64,000 bases of DNA from an uncultured Chloroflexia bacterium (lineage in GTDB: Bacteria; Chloroflexota; Limnocylindria; Limnocylindrales; CSP1-4). Under the pieces are notes generated by a model that saw only the letters and a list, made by a program, of their open reading frames with translations, had not been told where the DNA came from and ran no database searches. The position numbers and the translations under genes are program-made. This document shows, one piece after another, positions 1 through 13,686 of the stretch (position 1 is its first letter; every line of letters starts with the position of its first letter). The stretch spans positions 392,782-456,781 of the forward strand of contig CAWAGP010000010.1 in assembly GCA_963781705.1 (NCBI GenBank). Reading direction: 5' to 3'.

Positions 1-384
1 GGCCTTGGACTGTCGATGGACAAGATGTTCGTCAACCTCGACCGGTACGGGAACACCTCGGCGGCGTCGGTACCCATCGCGCTCGCCGAGGCGGTGGATT
101 CGGGCCGCGTCAAGATCGGCGACAAGATCGTGCTCGTCGCCTTTGGCGCCGGCCTGACTTCGGGCGGCATTGCGCTCGAGTGGACCGCGGATCCGCGCTG
201 TGGCGAGCGGGCGGCGCTGGTCGAGCCGGTGGCGCACGTGCGCGAGCCGCTCGACTGGTCGTCGGTCGACCCGATCCCGGATCGCCTGCGCGAGGTACTC
301 GAGGGCGGCAGCGGCCCGCGCGTGCCGCTCGACGACGTAGTTCCCGGCGACCCCGAACCGGCCCATCGCGACGTTCCCGCCTAA
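1..384 (+). CDS. fabH: 3-oxoacyl-ACP synthase III, C-terminal part (5' truncated by window)
   Basis: [17 protein letters not shown] and AFGAGLT motifs of KAS III; lies upstream of fabG. Confidence 0.93.
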
Positions 385-423
385 CCCGTCGTCCGGACGG
401 GCCGTGAACACCGGCGGGCCGCG

Positions 424-640
424 ACTTCTGACATTTGTCGCCGCTGACCGACCTTAATCGCCTCCCAGCAGCCAACTTCTGACATTTGTCGCCGATGGAC
501 GACACTACGCCGGTCGTCGGCCTCCCCGGCACCTTTCCGAAGCCTGATCACGCTCAAGCTGAGCGTGGCGGCGCCTTCCGTACCCGTCGGATGGTTGACG
601 GATTGCGCGTACGGTCGACAGAGCCGACATCTGACAGAAA
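424..640. repeat. Hairpin repeat cassette A: two direct units (424-456, 475-507) plus an inverted unit (610-640)
   Basis: Exact 20-bp repeat ACTTCTGACATTTGTCGCCG at 424-443 and 475-494, each followed by a CGAC(C/A)(T/C)TA box giving a GTCG-N8-CGAC hairpin; a reverse-oriented copy TACGGTCG-N7-CGACATCTGACAGAAA lies inside the end of the HTH-nuclease gene. Confidence 0.8.
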
Positions 641-1288
641 CCAGATGCCACCGATCGCCCCGTCCGGTTGGCGAAGCCAGCGGCGCAGCGCCCGCGAGCC
701 CTCCGGCAACGACGCACGCAACGCGCCAGCATGACGCTCGACCTGGCGCCGACAGGTCCGATCTTCGGGCAGGACAAGTACGCGACCAACGTGCCGGGCG
801 TGCCAGCCGAAGCGCTCACGAACGACCTGAGCCGCCAGCCGGCATTTCACGTCGAACGGTCGAAGCGTGCCTTCGACGCTCGCGAGTTCTGACTTGACTT
901 CGATCACAAGCAGTGTCCGGCTGGTGGCGTGCCAGGCGACCACGTCGATCGAGCCTCGCTCGCCATAACTCGAGTACGAGACCTCGACGCGCACCTCCCA
1001 GCCGTGGCGTTGGAGAAGCCCGGTCATGGCGCCGACCAGCCGCGCATGTGTCTCGTCGATCAGTCGGTCCCCTGCTGCCCCGCGGTAGGAGGCGTTCAGC
1101 AGCAGGCGGATTTCGAGCGCGCCCAGGCATCGCTCGAGCTCGTCCAGGCGAAGATCGCCCAATCGCCCGGCTTCCACGTCGATCACTTTCCAGCGCCCCA
1201 CGTGCGCACGGGCTGCGAGATCCGCCTGCGTTATCCGCGCGCGATGCCTGACGACTCGCACCAGCCGGCCGAGTTGCCGGTCGTTCAC
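554..1288 (-). CDS. XRE-family HTH protein fused to a PD-(D/E)XK (DUF559/Vsr-like) nuclease domain
   Basis: N-terminal HTH (ITQADLAARAHVGRWKVIDVEAG); C-terminal E...SIDVVAWH...LLVIEVKS motif. Confidence 0.85.
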   Translation of the reverse strand: MNDRQLGRLVRVVRHRARITQADLAARAHVGRWKVIDVEAGRLGDLRLDELERCLGALEIRLLLNASYRGAAGDRLIDETHARLVGAMTGLLQRHGWEVRVEVSYSSYGERGSIDVVAWHATSRTLLVIEVKSELASVEGTLRPFDVKCRLAAQVVRERFGWHARHVGRVLVLPEDRTCRRQVERHAGALRASLPEGSRALRRWLRQPDGAIGGIWFLSDVGSVDRTRNPSTIRRVRKAPPRSA

Positions 1289-1304
1289 CCTCAGATGATC
1301 GGCA

Positions 1305-1370
1305 CGGCCGCTTATCGGCCGCTCATCGGCCGCTTATCGGCTGCCTATCGGCCGCTCATCGGCTGGTTAC
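1305..1370. repeat. 11-bp tandem repeat x6 (consensus CGGCCGCTYAT) between the divergent HTH-nuclease gene and fabG
   Basis: Units cggccgcttat, cggccgctcat, cggccgcttat, cggctgcctat, cggccgctcat, cggctggttac read directly. Confidence 0.9.
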
Positions 1371-1373
1371 ACT
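1368..1373 (+). promoter_or_regulatory. -10 element (TACACT) 6 nt before the fabG ATG; likely leaderless promoter
   Basis: TANNNT hexamer 6 nt before ATG 1380, no Shine-Dalgarno. Confidence 0.6.
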
Positions 1374-1379
1374 CGGTCG

Positions 1380-2129
1380 ATGATCGATCTGAGCGGCAAA
1401 TCGGCCATCGTCACCGGCGGCTCGCGCGGCATCGGGCGCGCCATCGTGCTGCGCCTCGCGGCGCAGGGCGCGGACGTCACCTTCTCCTATCGCGGCAACA
1501 CCAGCGCGGCCGACGAAGCCGTCGCGGCCGTGCAGGCGCTCGGCCGGCAGGCGCTCGCGATCCAGGGCGACGCCGCCGATCCGGCGGCGGCCGAGGCGCT
1601 CGTCAAGGCGGCGCTCGAGGCGCACGGCAAGGTCGACGTCCTGGTCAACAACGCGGGCATCACCCGCGACGACCTCATCATGCGCATGAGCCCGGACGAC
1701 TTTCGCGCGGTGCTCGAGACGAACCTGTTCGGCGCGTTCTACGCGATCAAGGCGGTCACCCGGCCGATGCTGCGCGCCAAGTCGGGCAGGATCGTCAACA
1801 TCACATCGGTCAGCGGCCAGGCCGGCCAGATGGGCCAGGCCAACTACTCGTCGGCCAAGGCCGGCCTGATCGGGCTGACCAAGGCCACCGCACGCGAGCT
1901 GGCGTCAAGAGGAATCACCTGCAACGCCGTCGCGCCCGGTTTCGTGCTGACCGAGTTGACCCAGGGGTTGGCCGATGAATGGAAGCAACGCATAACCGAG
2001 CAGACACCGCTGGGCCGCTTCGGGACGCCCGATGAGATCGCCTACGCCGTCGCCTTCCTGGCCTCCGACGAAGCCGCTTTCATCACCGGCCAGGTGCTGG
2101 CCGTCGACGGCGGCCTGGTGATGATGTAG
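1380..2129 (+). CDS. fabG: 3-oxoacyl-ACP reductase
   Basis: TGGSRGIG, NNAGITRD, GQANYSSAKAG (YxxxK), ITGQVLAVDGG. Confidence 0.96.
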   Translation: MIDLSGKSAIVTGGSRGIGRAIVLRLAAQGADVTFSYRGNTSAADEAVAAVQALGRQALAIQGDAADPAAAEALVKAALEAHGKVDVLVNNAGITRDDLIMRMSPDDFRAVLETNLFGAFYAIKAVTRPMLRAKSGRIVNITSVSGQAGQMGQANYSSAKAGLIGLTKATARELASRGITCNAVAPGFVLTELTQGLADEWKQRITEQTPLGRFGTPDEIAYAVAFLASDEAAFITGQVLAVDGGLVMM

Positions 2130-2148
2130 TTGCCAGCGCGCGGGCCGG

Positions 2149-4665
2149 TCAGGGGGCCGGGTAGAAGGCGGTCAGATTCAGCGGGCCCGGCTTCGACCAG
2201 CCGTTGACGGTCACGAAGTCGGTGCGACCGTTGTGGTCGTAGTCGATCGCCAGCACCTCGTCGGCACTGCCACTGCCCGGCTGGGGGATCGCCATCTGGC
2301 TGAAAGAGCTGCCGTCGCCGTCGTTGACCAGCATCAGGTTGCCGCTGTTGCCGGCGACGTGGCGCGCGACGTAGATGTCCGGCAGGCCATCGCCGTTGAC
2401 GTCGCCGACGGCCATCGACACGCCGTCGGTGACGTCCAGTTGATACGCCTGGTGGAATGTGCCGCCGGATTGCAGACTGACGCTCAGCAGTTGCTTGCTC
2501 AGCTCGGCCAGGTCGGGCGTGCCGTCGCCGTTGAAGTCGGCGACGAGCATCTGCGACACGCCGCCGATCAGGATGCCCAGCTGGGCCGTGCGGTCGACGA
2601 AGTGGCCGTTCTCGTTGTAGTAGATGCGCGCGCCGGCCGGCATCGTCGCGGCAGAATGGACGGCAGCCGTCGGTGAGCTGGCCGCCGCTTCTTCGGCCGC
2701 ATCGGTCGGCTCGGTGGTGCACACCAGCAGCTCGTCCTTGCCGTCGCCGTTGAGGTCGGCCGCGTTGACGCAGCCGTAACCGATCGACAGGTCGACACCC
2801 CAACTGGGCGCGGAGACGAAGCCCGTGCCATCGACGTTCTGGTAGAGCCGGTTCGAACTCCACAGCCCGTCCGAGCGGTTCGGCTCGTTGACAACGTAGA
2901 CGTCCGGGTACGGGTCGCCGCCCAGGTTCAGGAAGTGCACATCGCGAGCGCGACCGAAGCCGTCGATCAACCCGAACTGGGTCGACGCCCAGGTGCCGCC
3001 GCCGTCACCCACGTTGAGCGTGAGCTCGTCGGGCTTGTTGCTCGTGCCCTTGTTGACGCCGACGGCGCAGAACAGGTCGAGCTGGCCGTTGAGGTCCACG
3101 TCCGCGGCGTCGCAGCCGTGCCGGTCGCGCACGGTGAAATCGCCGACCAGCCGGCTGAATACGCCCGACGCGCTGTTGAGCATCAGCACCGGCACATCGA
3201 GGTAGTGCCGATTCATATAGATGTCGTCGTAGCCGTCACCGTTGAAGTCGCCGACCACACCACCCCACGTGAGCGACGAGAGTTCCGGGATGTCCAACCC
3301 GGCGCCGTCCGTGACGTCGATCGCGACCGTGTTGGCGATGGGCACCGTGTCGGCGACGAACGTGTCGGGCACATCGGGCGTGGCGGGTACGTCGTCATCG
3401 ATCTCGTCCACGGTTCCGCCTCCGGCGCCATCCTGCGCCGCTGGGTCGGGCACGCCGAGCGGACCGCCGACCGCCGGCCCGCCGGACGCGCCACCGCTGC
3501 ACGGCAGCAGCGTCACGCCGTGCCCATCGACGAAGCCGACGGCGACGGCACCGCTGCCCAGCGATGCCGCGCTCATGATCGCGGACATCTGCGCGGCGCT
3601 TCCTGTCGATAGGCTGGTCACCTGCCAGCTGCCACCGTTCAGCACAGCCAGCACATCGCGGACCTGTGCGTCGACCCGCATGCCGCCCACGACCAGTGCG
3701 CCCGCGGCGTCGACGGTGACCGTCTCGAGCACGAGCGACTGGCCGGCTGCCCACGGCAGAGCGACGTTGCTCCACCTTGTGCCATTCCAGTGCTGCAGGA
3801 TCGGAACGTAACCGTGGGCGCCCTCGACGAAACCAGCCGCCCAGCCGTCGGTCGGACTCGCAAAGGCCAGGTCGAGGATCGAGGCGCGGCCGGCCGGGAC
3901 GGCGGCCAGCGGTGTCGTGTGCCACTTGCCCGACGACGTCCGGTAGACGACCCACGGCCGGCCCTGACCGGTGTCGTCGGTCCGCCATCCACCAGCCCAG
4001 ACGCGCCCGCTGGGATCGACCGCCGCGGCGGTCAGGCCAGCCTGCGCGCCGGCGGGGACGTGCGGCGACAGCGTTCGCCAGCCCTTCGGGCGATGGAGCA
4101 TCGCCACGGGTTTCATCTTGCTCGTTTGGAGTCGCGCGCCGACTGCCCAGAAACGGCGACTGTCGAGCGCGGCGAGGTCGGTGAAGACTGCCCATTGGCC
4201 CTTCGGCCGGGGAACAACGAGCCTGGCCCAGGACGTGCCGTTCCACTGCGCCGCGATCGGCCAGCGCACGTAGATGCCCTTCGCACCGACCATCCAGGCG
4301 TTGTCGGCCGATGTCGCCTGGATGGCGTTCAGGACGCCGTATGACTTCCACGGTGCGGGTACCTTCACCCAGCCGCCGTTGCTCCAGCGGCCGATCATCA
4401 TCACGCGCGGATCGGCGCGCGGCAGGGGCAGGCCCACGATCCAGGCTGGCTGCCCGTCGATCGCGGCGACGGCATGCGGCTCAAGGCCGTCGAGCGAAGC
4501 GGGCAGGCCGACCGTCGTCCAGCCGTCGACGCAGCTGTCGTCGGCCAGTGCCGCCGGCGGCGATGCGGTCGCAGCCGGCGCCGATGCGGTCACGGCCGGC
4601 GCCAGCACCAGTACGAGCCCGGCCAGCGCGACCCATGCGGCGCGCGCATAACCGGCGATCATCAT
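2149..4665 (-). CDS. Secreted FG-GAP/VCBS repeat protein with an N-terminal beta-propeller
   Basis: Signal peptide; Trp-rich propeller repeats (WMVG, QWNGTSW, QHWNGTRW); several GDFNGDGYDD/ADLNGDGKDE/GDVNGDGLPD repeats. Confidence 0.85.
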   Translation of the reverse strand: MMIAGYARAAWVALAGLVLVLAPAVTASAPAATASPPAALADDSCVDGWTTVGLPASLDGLEPHAVAAIDGQPAWIVGLPLPRADPRVMMIGRWSNGGWVKVPAPWKSYGVLNAIQATSADNAWMVGAKGIYVRWPIAAQWNGTSWARLVVPRPKGQWAVFTDLAALDSRRFWAVGARLQTSKMKPVAMLHRPKGWRTLSPHVPAGAQAGLTAAAVDPSGRVWAGGWRTDDTGQGRPWVVYRTSSGKWHTTPLAAVPAGRASILDLAFASPTDGWAAGFVEGAHGYVPILQHWNGTRWSNVALPWAAGQSLVLETVTVDAAGALVVGGMRVDAQVRDVLAVLNGGSWQVTSLSTGSAAQMSAIMSAASLGSGAVAVGFVDGHGVTLLPCSGGASGGPAVGGPLGVPDPAAQDGAGGGTVDEIDDDVPATPDVPDTFVADTVPIANTVAIDVTDGAGLDIPELSSLTWGGVVGDFNGDGYDDIYMNRHYLDVPVLMLNSASGVFSRLVGDFTVRDRHGCDAADVDLNGQLDLFCAVGVNKGTSNKPDELTLNVGDGGGTWASTQFGLIDGFGRARDVHFLNLGGDPYPDVYVVNEPNRSDGLWSSNRLYQNVDGTGFVSAPSWGVDLSIGYGCVNAADLNGDGKDELLVCTTEPTDAAEEAAASSPTAAVHSAATMPAGARIYYNENGHFVDRTAQLGILIGGVSQMLVADFNGDGTPDLAELSKQLLSVSLQSGGTFHQAYQLDVTDGVSMAVGDVNGDGLPDIYVARHVAGNSGNLMLVNDGDGSSFSQMAIPQPGSGSADEVLAIDYDHNGRTDFVTVNGWSKPGPLNLTAFYPAP

Positions 4666-11426: not shown

Positions 11427-12395
11427 ATGCCGCGCCCCGATTTCTTCCTCGTGGGCACCTTCAAGGGCGGCTCGACGGCGCTCTACGAGGCACTCCGGCG
11501 CCACCCCCAGGTCTTCATGCCGTTCCACAAGGAGCCGCTCTATTTCGGCGACGATCTGACGCGGCGCTACGGCCGCTTCACGCTCGAGGACTACCTGCGT
11601 CTCTTCCGTGACGCGAAGCCCGGCCAGCGGGTGGGCGAGGCGAGCACCTGGTACCTGTACTCGACGTCGGCCGCCGGCGAGATCCACGACTTCAACCCTG
11701 AGGCCCACATCCTGGTCGTGCTGCGTAACCCGGTCGACGTGATGTACGCGCAGCACAACCAGCTCATCTTCAACGTCATCGAGGACATCCCCGACTTCGC
11801 CGAGGCACTCGCCGCCGAGCCCGACCGCCGCGCCGGGCGGCGGATGCCGCCCGGGCCGATCAACGTCGAGAACCTCTTCTATCGCCACAGTGTCCGTTAC
11901 GTCGAACAGCTGCAGCGCTACTTCGACGCGTTCGGCCGCGAGCGCGTGCACGTGATGCTGTTCGATGACCTGCGTGCCGATGGTTCGGCCGTTGTGCGTG
12001 ACTGTCTCGAGTTTCTGGGCGTCGACGCCAGCCTGGCCGCGGCGCCGCCGGCCGCCAACGAGAGTCGCCGCGTGCGCTCGCGGGTCGTCCAGCGACTGAT
12101 CTTCGCGCCCAAGCTGCTGCTGCCGCTCGCCCCAGTGCTGCGCAAGGTGCCGCTGGTGCGCTCGGCGCGCAGCCGGTTGCTCAACATGAACAGCGAGACG
12201 CGGCCGCGCCAGCCGATGGATCCGGCCCTCCGGCGGCAACTGCTCGACGAGTTCGCGCCGCAGATCGAGCAGCTCGGCCGGCTGATCGGCCGCGACCTCT
12301 CGCCGTGGACGCAGGGCGAGCCACTGCCGAAGCCCGAGCCCGGGCCTGAGGCCGAGCCCGAGCCGGAGCCGGAGGCGTCAACAGCCGGCGCCTGA
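11427..12395 (+). CDS. Sulfotransferase (Sulfotransfer_1)
   Basis: FFLVGTFKGGSTAL, KEPLYF, GEASTWY, LRNPVD. Confidence 0.92.
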   Translation: MPRPDFFLVGTFKGGSTALYEALRRHPQVFMPFHKEPLYFGDDLTRRYGRFTLEDYLRLFRDAKPGQRVGEASTWYLYSTSAAGEIHDFNPEAHILVVLRNPVDVMYAQHNQLIFNVIEDIPDFAEALAAEPDRRAGRRMPPGPINVENLFYRHSVRYVEQLQRYFDAFGRERVHVMLFDDLRADGSAVVRDCLEFLGVDASLAAAPPAANESRRVRSRVVQRLIFAPKLLLPLAPVLRKVPLVRSARSRLLNMNSETRPRQPMDPALRRQLLDEFAPQIEQLGRLIGRDLSPWTQGEPLPKPEPGPEAEPEPEPEASTAGA

Positions 12396-12485
12396 ACTCG
12401 CTGACACCCCGGGCCGGCGCTCAACCACTGGCCCGCGTGAAGCGACCGGACCGCGGCCGCCTGAACCTGTCGCTGGCGCGTCCGA

Positions 12486-12707
12486 CCGTCATTTGTCGAT
12501 CTCACCGACACTAACCGGCCCGACGAGCGGCTCTTCCGTCATTTGTCGGCCGGGTCGGACCTTATGCGGCTCTGGGGCCTCGTTATGCGGCTCCATGGCT
12601 TGTTTGGTCGGCGTCGGCGCGCCGTCTGAGCGTGGAGTAGGCCCGTCAGAGCGTCAAATCGGTGCCGGAAGTCGCGTAACGTCGGCATAGCCGACATTCG
12701 ACGGAAG
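12486..12707. repeat. Hairpin repeat cassette B, gene-less homolog of cassette A
   Basis: Direct units 12486-12513 and 12533-12564 (CCGTCATTTGTCG core) plus an inverted unit at 12677-12707; 12626-12706 aligns ungapped to 559-639. Confidence 0.78.
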
Positions 12708-12780
12708 TGTGCGTGCCCAGGTGACGAGGCACGCGCCCAGGGTGACCGTGCAGCACCCGCAACTGCGATCATGCGTGGCA

Positions 12781-13686
12781 GTGAAACGACCCGAGATCTT
12801 CATCGTCGGCGCGTTCAAGGCGGGTACGACCGCGCTGTACGAGTACCTGCGCGCTCATCCCAACATATTCATGTCGACGCCCAAGGAGCCGATGTACTTT
12901 GGCGGGGACCTGACGCCGCGCTACAAGCGCATGAGCGAGGCCGAATACCTGGCGCTGTTCAAGCGCGCGGCCGACGGACAGCACGCCGGCGAAGCGTCAC
13001 CGTGGTACCTGTACTCGACCGCTGCTGCGCGCGAGATCCACGACTTCAACCACGCGGCACGGATCATCGTCATGCTGCGCAACCCGGTCGACGTGATGTA
13101 CTCGCAGTACAGCCAACTCGTCTTCAACCAGCGTGAGGACCTGACCGATTTCTCAGCGGCCCTGGCCGCCGAGCCCGACCGCCGAGCCGGCCGCCGACTG
13201 CCCGCCGGCGCCATCCGTCCCGAGGCGCTCTTCTACCGCCACAGCGTGCGCTTTGCGGAACAGGTGCAGCGGTATCTCGACGTGTTCGGTCGGCCGGGCG
13301 TCCACTTCGTCGTCTTCGACGACCTGGTCGCCGATCCACGCGCGGTCTATCGCGCAACGCTCGAGTTCCTGGGCGTCGACCCGACTTTCCAGGTCGACCT
13401 GTCCGTCTACAACCCCAACCGCCGTGCACGATCCGGCCGGTTGCAGGGGGCGATCTTCAACCCGCCGCCAGCGCTGCGCGGCGTGGTCGGCCGCCTGCGC
13501 CAGATGCCCATCGCGCATCGGCTGCGCGATGCGCTGGTGTCGGCCAACAGTGCCCAGGCGGCCCGGCCGACGATGGACCCGGAACTGCGCCGTTCGCTGA
13601 CGGCCGAGTTTGCGCCGCAGGTAACCGAGCTGGGCGAGCTGGTCGGCCGGGATCTGTCCGCCTGGAGCAAGGTCGGCAGCACGTGA
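12781..13686 (+). CDS. Sulfotransferase (Sulfotransfer_1), tandem paralog of 11427-12395
   Basis: FIVGAFKAGTTAL, KEPMYF, GEASPWY, MLRNPVD. Confidence 0.92.
   Translation: MKRPEIFIVGAFKAGTTALYEYLRAHPNIFMSTPKEPMYFGGDLTPRYKRMSEAEYLALFKRAADGQHAGEASPWYLYSTAAAREIHDFNHAARIIVMLRNPVDVMYSQYSQLVFNQREDLTDFSAALAAEPDRRAGRRLPAGAIRPEALFYRHSVRFAEQVQRYLDVFGRPGVHFVVFDDLVADPRAVYRATLEFLGVDPTFQVDLSVYNPNRRARSGRLQGAIFNPPPALRGVVGRLRQMPIAHRLRDALVSANSAQAARPTMDPELRRSLTAEFAPQVTELGELVGRDLSAWSKVGST

Follow-up and report, generated by a model that had tools for sequence, protein, structure and literature searches.

The window examined here is a stretch of 64,000 nt (positions 392,782 to 456,781 of contig CAWAGP010000010.1) from an uncultured Limnocylindria bacterium of the phylum Chloroflexota, whose genome assembly comprises 2.67 Mb in 10 contigs with 68% G + C and is 90.87% complete; all genomes compared in this work are metagenome-assembled genomes (MAGs). 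Near the left end of the window, between fabH and fabG and on the opposite strand, lies a stand-alone gene of 244 codons that encodes a helix-turn-helix (HTH) domain joined to a PD-(D/E)XK nuclease domain. Short palindromic repeat units, which we call U1, U2, and U3, are found within the last codons of this gene and just downstream of it, and a similar group of units, hereafter a cassette, occurs elsewhere in the genome with no gene attached. We present evidence that the gene and its repeats may together constitute one member of a family of small selfish elements. The features of the locus, together with a gene-less cassette further along the window, are as follows.

1–384: 3′ end of fabH, convergent with the nuclease gene (ACP_syn_III_C, E = 2.5e-22)
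385–423: spacer from the fabH stop to U1; inserted DNA that provides the fabH stop codon TAA, from comparison with empty sites
424–456, + strand: U1, the outermost unit, in inverted orientation to the gene; its left box, CTTCTGACA, forms the cassette's outer end
475–507, + strand: U2, the inner non-coding unit, inverted relative to the gene (repeat and alignment comparison)
554–1288, − strand: HTH-nuclease gene, 244 aa (open reading frame (ORF) call, Pfam, homolog alignment, structural model, and fold matches)
608–642, − strand: U3, the in-gene unit; its left box, TGGTTTCTGTCA, encodes WFLS, and its right box is CGTACGCGC
1289–1379, − strand: 5′ region of the element, with an 11-nt tandem repeat and a fabG-proximal TTACACT box
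1380–2129: fabG, divergent from the nuclease gene (adh_short_C2, E = 2.4e-67)
12480–12707, + strand: gene-less cassette, with direct units at 12480–12513 and 12531–12569, a tail-coding remnant, and an inverted unit at 12672–12707

An earlier reading made from the sequence alone had described the gene, two direct units near 424–456 and 475–507, and an inverted unit in the last codons, and all of these hold. The direct repeat (424–452 and 475–503) is 29 nt long with 90% identity and a spacing of 51 nt, U1 and U2 share an identical first 20 nt as read from the sequence, and the 17-mer ACTTCTGACATTTGTCG, allowing up to three mismatches, matches the window three times against 0.11 expected, a number that 0 of 100 shuffles reached. 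U3 is marginal when taken alone (local score 14.5, compared to a 99th-percentile shuffle score of 13.5; ~21 of 33 positions match the other units by eye), but it becomes convincing because the layout of two direct units, ~100 nt, and one inverted unit recurs at a second locus in the same genome (contig C10, 956.9–957.1 kb) and across the family. Its palindrome, GTCGG-N5-TCGAC, encodes variable, disordered residues (pLDDT below 50 for residues 221–238). The same reading had taken the units for hairpins; the GTCG/CGAC arms are indeed present, but as single strands they fold weakly (−2.0, −4.4, and −2.9 kcal/mol, with z-scores of −1.5, −2.5, and 0.0), and the units look like double-stranded palindromic operators for an HTH dimer at least as much as like hairpins. 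A small antisense ORF at 486–734 (+ strand) was also considered as a feature of the locus and dropped, since the window and the second locus share no conserved sequence in the interval that separates U2 from U3.

The encoded protein consists of a HipB/XRE-type HTH domain (residues 1–66), a long helix, a PD-(D/E)XK core (residues ~98–218), and a disordered basic tail, RNPSTIRRVRKAPPRSA. The HTH part matches the Pfam family HTH_31 with 27.1 bits (gathering cut-off 27), which places it among the XRE/HipB-type domains, and the NCBIfam model TIGR03070 (E = 1.6e-8), while its closest structural neighbors are HipB, HigA2, and controller proteins (Z 9.8–11.7), among them 8ezt (HipB; Z 11.7, rmsd 3.0, 69 residues aligned), 7ewc (Z 11.3), and 1y7y (Z 10.5). 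Apart from a weak Pfam match to HSDR_N_2, a restriction-enzyme N-terminal family, the nuclease part falls into no family of Pfam, NCBIfam, or PADLOC: in sequence searches, NCBIfam, PADLOC, and the PDB yielded nothing but HTH-type or chance-level rows, and PADLOC had nothing for the protein beyond weak HTH and Cas4 rows. The signature residues E102, D115, E130, and K132 are nevertheless invariant in an alignment of 36 homologs, and together with the alpha-beta fold and its matches to XisH, AF1548, NucS, Can2, and the R2 endonuclease (Z 7.9–10.4) they assign the domain to the PD-(D/E)XK superfamily. The individual fold scores for residues ~75–222 are 10.4 for XisH (2okf, 112 residues aligned), 9.5 for the Upx nuclease, 9.2 for AF1548 (1y88), 8.9 for NucS (2vld), 8.1 for Can2, 7.9 for the R2 endonuclease (9dou), and 7.7 for FokI (2fok). 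Judging from its catalytic residues, the nuclease domain is apparently active.

The C-terminus of the protein is conserved in the 36 homologs as WFLS, followed by about eight variable residues and RNPSAIRRVRRPxPRS. In the AlphaFold model (mean pLDDT 87.1) the last core strand holds W216 and F217, and residues 221–238 are disordered. The protein is predicted to form a homodimer through its HTH domain: the homodimer model scored 0.59, compared to 0.00 for the best control, with the interface confined to residues 1–77, at least 82% of contacts in common between runs, and a partner pLDDT of at least 79. In a benchmark, 20 of 30 proteins solved as pairs reached a score of 0.59, as did one of 23 solved as single chains.

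Homologs are numerous, with 1308 proteins at E ≤ 1e-3 among 3335 candidates, and those with names come from Chloroflexota MAGs, where they are annotated as XRE regulators or as hypothetical; the nearest ESM Atlas clusters likewise consist of unnamed Chloroflexota hypothetical proteins. Searches of whole genomes showed a multi-copy family, found in 23 of the 24 other genus members searched but not in any of 16 sister-family genomes, with 5–11 divergent gene copies per genome. The host genome gave 11 match rows, including split copies and copies with in-frame stops, and its paralogs are 36–46% identical to the window protein. Reference genomes contained 257 loci encoding a relative; nearly all of the best 80 of these are labeled as Limnocylindria, Limnocylindrales, or Chloroflexota MAGs. 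We also observed that the C-terminal extensions of some homologs may read into the downstream units; these extensions share (L)IDPHK(V)G, apparently a translated downstream unit.

Because the unit sequence is not conserved across species, its association with the gene family was evaluated by comparing each locus with itself. A motif search for CTGACATTTGTCG with up to one mismatch in 41 genomes had given mostly chance coding matches such as CTGACATTCGTCG, and a comparison of a 150-nt tail with 450 nt downstream under a maximum-shuffle threshold proved too insensitive, missing the window locus itself, and was replaced. In the final analysis, 42 nt from the codon aligned with W216 were compared on both strands with the region extending to 350 nt past the stop codon, and a copy was counted when it exceeded the 99th-percentile shuffle score; of 80 loci fetched, 76 could be analyzed, three being too short and one impossible to anchor. 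At least one inverted copy of the unit was found downstream at 37 of the 76 homolog loci, and at least two at 14, compared to direct copies at only seven, one of which is a second gene copy. These inverted copies of the codons for WFLS and the ~8 variable residues sit 20–230 nt downstream. A separate set from the genus gave the same orientation bias (inverted 12/25, direct 1/25, including one locus from the unpublished genome G004), and all six intact paralogs of the host genome carry the cassette by eye. The claim that such units belong with this HTH/PD-(D/E)XK family thus holds well beyond the window.

The anatomy of the cassette is shared even where its sequence is not. Each unit (~40 bp) comprises a left or terminal box, a palindrome, and a right box. 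The left box is TGGTTYCTGTCA in the gene and TTCCnGTCA-like in non-coding copies; the right box is TAAGCGG or TTACGCGG, or TA(A/C)GCGG overall. The palindrome has arms of 4–8 bp and a span of ~13–17 bp, and its arms are specific to the paralog (GTCG/CGAC, TGCCCA/TGGGCA, ACGCGC/GCGCGT, and CCACC/GGTGG), remaining palindromic in the non-coding copies while the spacers vary. In protein terms, the left box coincides with the codons of the last beta-strand and the palindrome with those of the variable, disordered linker, a segment that can accommodate a constraint at the DNA level. The full cassette is bounded by inverted repeats and measures ~210–270 bp, with one to four inverted copies downstream of the in-gene unit, and at several loci in the wider set an entire extra cassette lies 100–300 nt upstream of the gene. 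The cassettes of paralogs 3–6, like the candidate target duplications described below, were read by eye from the sequence.

When the 76 loci were sorted by palindrome type, the recognition helix of the HTH domain was found to vary with the half-site. Loci with ACGA-N7-TCGT (n = 10) have S-L at the recognition helix in nine cases and S-Y in one, all five loci with ACGC…GCGT have S-R, and both loci with ACCG(G)C have SQQxVSDLERG. This covariation fits a dimer that would read the palindrome in double-stranded form.

Between fabH and fabG the gene is not a fixed, vertically inherited feature. In a survey of 30 junction loci with FabG, the gene is present at seven, one of which (G024) is frameshifted and has an extra cassette between the gene and fabG. 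Nine junctions are empty, one of them from G004, with the fabH stop overlapping the fabG start or the two lying up to 47 nt apart, and two hold a cassette only, in one case adjoined by an unrelated gene. Another six contain other genes (ArsR-family, at one locus with a cupin gene as well, OsmC, or an FkbM-type methyltransferase), and at the last six fabH is not within the locus. The empty sites for which the sequence-only reading had called therefore exist in close relatives, and comparison with them delimits the gene plus repeats as a single-gene insertion of ~1–1.1 kb. In a fabG tree of 28 rows, filled alleles are scattered over four or more supported clades, which also include alleles that are empty or occupied by something else. 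Decay is evident both in the frameshifted G024 copy at this junction and in the in-frame stops of some host-genome copies.

A second paralog of the host genome gave a consistent picture. The insertion that holds paralog 2 is 1106 nt long and separates two convergent genes; the corresponding sites in G021 and G006 are empty, with flanks 32 and 45 nt apart, and the outermost unit starts within a few nucleotides of the insertion junction. Presence and absence with intact empty sites, as in insertion sequences and miniature inverted-repeat transposable elements (MITEs), was thus found at fabH–fabG, at paralog 2, and at the gene-less cassette at 12480–12707.

The fabH–fabG junction has also received other genes, and the overlapping fabH stop and fabG start are a hot spot of gene turnover in the genus. 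In G011, G045, and G001 (loci L075, L082, and L083) an ArsR-family HTH gene (Pfam HTH_5) lies between hairpin-like CTTCCGCTCAAGCGGAAG units, which may be another small element with repeats of its own. The junctions of L085, L088, L092, and L086 hold an OsmC-like gene, an FkbM-type methyltransferase gene, or an unannotated gene with a Walker-A-like motif beside a gene-less cassette; the OsmC-like gene is that of L088, and L085 bears the same label by eye only.

Four gene-less cassettes were detected in the host genome, three of the window type and one of the paralog 2 type, in a search that covered these two of about nine unit types. In addition to 12480–12707 of the window, they are located as follows.

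C10:956.9–957.1 kb: window type; two direct units, ~100 nt, and one inverted unit, between a gene and a tRNA cluster
C10:632.24–632.46 kb: window type
C10:604.95–605.16 kb: paralog 2 type

Each is ~210–230 bp long and consists of one unit, a tail-coding remnant, and two inverted units, and the cassettes have terminal inverted repeats in the manner of MITEs, running from CTTC(C/T)G(A/T)CA to its inverted copy; the full gene-bearing element has no matching unit at its 5′ end. Three of the four cassettes start to resemble the full copy at a point no more than 3 nt from the terminal (left) box of U3. The example at C10:956.9–957.1 kb retains the three units of the window locus and ~20 nt by U3, while the ~100 nt between them are not conserved, and its similarity to the window ends at the outer end of U3. 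By our own reading its remnant reads SDVGLVDLMRNSTAV in the frame of the gene, where the window protein has SDVGSVDRTRNPSTI; since the remnant still reads in this frame, the cassette derives from the 3′ end of the gene. By eye, at least four tRNA-like genes lie beside this cassette (C10:956300–956800).

Detection of the cassettes depended on search settings. A genome-wide search of the kind that the sequence-only reading had recommended was informative in the host, where a 16-mer with up to two mismatches found six sites and led to the cassette at C10:956.9–957.1 kb, and uninformative in relatives, where matches were mostly due to chance. With default scoring blastn-short found no dispersed copies in the genome, and 1/−1 scoring then gave the four cassettes. 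A generic regular expression for the unit was not enriched in the genome (11 matches compared to 30 in a reversed control).

At the site of the 12480–12707 cassette, G021 is empty, with an overlapping GTGA stop/start; diverged cassettes occupy the site in G046 and G018, 2.4 kb of other DNA that lacks the gene occupies it in G047, and in G006 it falls on two contigs. Alignment of 12300–12800 with the G021 locus (L185) places the cassette where this relative has the overlapping stop/start GCGTGAAG. A ~16-nt copy of the start of the downstream gene, GTGAAGCGACCGGAC, lies upstream of the cassette in the window, and may be a long target duplication.

The 5′ region of the element has a repeat of its own. 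An 11-nt tandem repeat, CGGCCGCTTAT/CGGCCGCTCAT, occupies 1305–1369 in ~5 copies between the start of the nuclease gene and fabG; on the gene strand it consists of GATAAGCGGCC-like units (the 5′ GATAAGCGG repeats) and amounts to five copies of a GATAAG motif that recurs across the family. This motif, usually GATAAGCG and often in two copies 11 nt apart, is found 25–53 nt before the start codon at 32 of 75 loci, compared to 0 of 66 controls, and upstream of seven of nine host-genome copies, with 203 occurrences genome-wide. It resembles the right box of the units at the sequence level, and may be a promoter element, an operator, or an element end. On the fabG side, TTACACT (1367–1373, + strand) stands 7 nt before the fabG ATG. 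All alleles with insertions at fabH–fabG (the window, L069, L072, L081, L084, and L086) have a TTACACT, TAAACT, or TAGACT box ~7–10 nt before this ATG, which suggests a promoter for a leaderless or near-leaderless fabG that was supplied by the insertion or evolved with it. Directly downstream of fabG, on the opposite strand, we also noted a gene for an 838-aa protein with FG-GAP repeats (2149–4665, − strand; FG-GAP_3, E = 2.5e-25).

We put at roughly one half the probability that 385–1379 is one copy of a family of ~1–1.1 kb single-gene selfish or mobile elements, in which a dimeric HTH-nuclease binds the units as double-stranded sites and acts at the ends. Such elements would belong to Limnocylindria-type Chloroflexota and would be selfish and probably mobile. 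Beyond the observed anatomy of the family, its association with the gene, the insertion polymorphism, the boundaries at the terminal box, and the covariation of helix and half-site, we infer binding, cleavage, the cleavage site, and movement, as well as the propagation of the units by the protein that the sequence-only reading had proposed. In such a mechanism the HTH dimer would read the palindrome as double-stranded DNA, and the nuclease domains would make a cut or nick next to it, at the terminal box. Through repair or recombination by the host, the cassette, more rarely with the gene attached, would then be moved or copied into gene junctions, and the gene-less cassettes would be non-autonomous derivatives served in trans. 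The gene-less cassettes have a common boundary and lie at unrelated loci; with the clean empty sites, the pseudogenes, and the scatter of filled alleles on the tree, this points to breakage or copying directed at the terminal box. A homing-like or repair-dependent route, or one in which the gene is mobilized only between two cassettes, would as conjecture also fit the data.

We further suggest, more tentatively and with the odds against it, that these elements represent a new class of mobile element. Its sole enzyme would be an XRE-HTH/PD-(D/E)XK protein, its terminal repeat would be embedded in its own C-terminal codons, its MITE-like cassette would be cut or copied in trans, and ~5–11 co-resident types would each have a palindrome matched to their HTH domain. 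A full-text literature search, in which supplementary files were not included, found no description of the family.

Several observations weigh against a mobile element of this kind. Upstream copies of the unit occur at just 11 of 75 loci in direct and 10 of 75 in inverted orientation, mostly as parts of whole extra cassettes, and only 37 of the 76 loci passed the repeat test. The gene lies outside the inverted-repeat-bounded cassette, mostly with no 5′ unit, which leaves its own movement unexplained, and the paralogs, at only 36–46% identity, give no sign of recent bursts of transposition. Target-site duplications are not clear, the candidates (CTGAGC, a CTCGCC-like sequence, and a ~16-nt GTGAAGCGACC…) having been identified by eye only, and the fourth cassette, of the paralog 2 type, may keep ~75 nt more of the gene. 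The covariation of helix and palindrome takes no account of shared ancestry and may stem from one or two events, and the dimer prediction may owe its success to likeness to solved HipB dimers. On the mechanistic side, a PD-(D/E)XK nuclease alone cannot join DNA, and a simple cutting enzyme whose recognition sites lay within its own element would destroy that element.

Comparison with known systems shows partial likeness to several of them. As in insertion sequences and MITEs, there is a discrete insertion with empty sites, and there are short non-coding derivatives with terminal inverted repeats; the ends of Tn7 and Mu similarly carry several protein-binding repeats at one end, to which the units here may be likened. 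In contrast to insertion sequences, the only gene of the element encodes no DDE, HUH, serine, or tyrosine enzyme domain detectable with Pfam or NCBIfam, it lies outside the repeat-bounded unit while overlapping one repeat, and neither near-identical copies nor a clear target-site duplication accompany it. Free-standing homing endonuclease genes also consist of a single nuclease gene between conserved host genes, occur sporadically at one locus, and leave pseudogenes or remnants, and the pattern at fabH–fabG resembles their cycle of gain, decay, and loss. Homing endonucleases, however, recognize the empty target and lose their site upon insertion, whereas the likely sites here are in and beside the gene, with gene-less cassettes elsewhere. 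With HipB/HigA antitoxins and restriction-modification (R-M) controller proteins the protein shares the fold of its N-terminal domain, a predicted dimer through the HTH, and palindromic sites with arms about one helical turn apart; it differs from them in that its HTH is fused to a nuclease and its sites are at the 3′ end of the gene. The nuclease fold and the E, D, and ExK residues are those of XisH, AF1548, the NucS C-terminal domain, the R2 endonuclease, and the FokI cleavage domain, and FokI likewise joins a sequence-reading domain to a separate cleavage domain, but the window protein belongs at the sequence level to no family of such minimal PD-(D/E)XK nucleases in Pfam, NCBIfam, or PADLOC. 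To our knowledge, none of XisH, AF1548, NucS, the R2 endonuclease, and FokI carries its own site in its coding sequence.

The main rival to a mobile element is a stationary, autoregulated accessory gene, either an antitoxin-like HTH with a nuclease or a defense gene, whose units serve as operators or insulators for its own expression and for convergent transcription. Under this explanation, which we consider unlikely, presence and absence would reflect gene flux by homologous recombination through conserved flanks, and gene-less cassettes would be remnants of decay. The closeness of the HTH domain to HipB/HigA antitoxins and R-M controller proteins (Z 9.8–11.7; TIGR03070 E = 1.6e-8) favors it, as do the operator-like palindromes (arms 4–8 bp, span 13–17 bp), the conserved GATAAG(C)G 28–39 nt before the start codon at 32 of 75 loci, and the age and divergence of the paralogs, and the −10-like fabG box of insertion alleles suggests long coexistence with the host. 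Yet the operator-like units are at the 3′ end, away from the promoter, and random decay would not predict that three of four gene-less cassettes, at unrelated loci, begin at the terminal box. Nor is there an adjacent partner toxin gene, as in type II toxin-antitoxin systems of the HipBA/HigBA type, the element gene being alone in its ~1-kb insert, or a PADLOC match other than the weak HTH and Cas4 rows. Lower still is the probability that the units act as RNA or single-strand hairpins (terminators, 3′-end stabilizers, or REP-like sequences) whose downstream copies stem from an inverted duplication of the 3′ end of the gene, and on which the protein does not act. Their position downstream of coding regions, between convergent or co-directional genes, is that often taken by REPs (PMC3733652), and the covariation of palindrome arms between paralogs would agree with such a role. 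It would not, however, predict that the arms track the HTH recognition helix, and it leaves the conserved non-palindromic boxes unexplained; single-strand folding of the units is weak (−2.0 to −4.4 kcal/mol, z 0.0 to −2.5), and a Rfam search of positions 1–3000 at E up to 10 found no relevant match, only chance-level eukaryotic families. Long-range RNA pairing of U3 with U1 or U2 was dropped as a candidate since the differences between them are mostly transversions, which would pair poorly.

The system that the sequence-only reading had in mind, REPIN-like repeats dispersed by a dedicated enzyme, resembles the present one in that short inverted palindromic units are tied to one gene thought to act on them, and a TA(G/A) tag stands beside the palindrome. 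REP units are described (PMC3733652) as lying between genes and mostly downstream of coding regions. Here, in contrast, the units are at the 3′ side only, one of them inside the coding sequence, and the palindromes are weak, with arms of 4–8 bp. REPs are stable imperfect palindromes of 20–40 nt with a GTAG or CGTC tag; the palindromes here are followed by TA(G/A/C), which is not consistently part of a GTAG. As that reading itself recognized, the enzyme is no HUH protein: only HTH and weak HSDR_N_2 matches were found, and PF01797 (Y1_Tnp) had no match in the host genome at 90.87% completeness, in a search that was positive in 6 of 14 control genomes. Instead of a single-copy domesticated enzyme dispersing many hairpin doublets, each genome has 5–11 divergent gene copies with private unit types, and each of the two types searched has one full copy and 1–3 gene-less cassettes, at most four cassettes per type where a REP/REPIN system would have tens to hundreds of dispersed units, with the generic unit scan unenriched (11 vs. 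30). These copy numbers largely refute a literal REPIN/RAYT-type system and the repeat population proposed for it, to which we assign very little probability; the analogy holds in part, for a gene tied to its own palindromic units, and not for mechanism or population structure. We regard as equally improbable a DNA-inversion switch, in which recombination between the in-gene and downstream units would flip ~100–150 bp and swap the C-terminal tail. An inverted repeat does span the end of the coding region, and by our own reading short open frames continue from U1 and U2 after a flip, but the repeats are only ~65–80% identical with differing central spacers, no recombinase gene is adjacent, and homologs conserve the native tail RNPSAIRRVR but not the alternative ones.

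Taken together, the locus and its relatives have the look of a small selfish DNA element, carried by Limnocylindria bacteria, of a kind that had not been described. Should the protein act on its own units, small selfish DNA could have a means of spreading that relies on no known transposase chemistry, and the family would offer matched pairs of nuclease and site, in which a programmable-looking HTH specificity is combined with a separate cleavage domain, across a specificity set of more than 1300 homologs and many distinct palindromes. For protein evolution, it would provide a case in which DNA-level sites are written into a disordered protein linker. The element family may also account for the turnover of genes where neighbors are tightly coupled and their stop and start codons overlap, and, if our interpretation of a mobile element is true, many of the "XRE family regulators" annotated in Limnocylindria would be element genes rather than regulators of the host.

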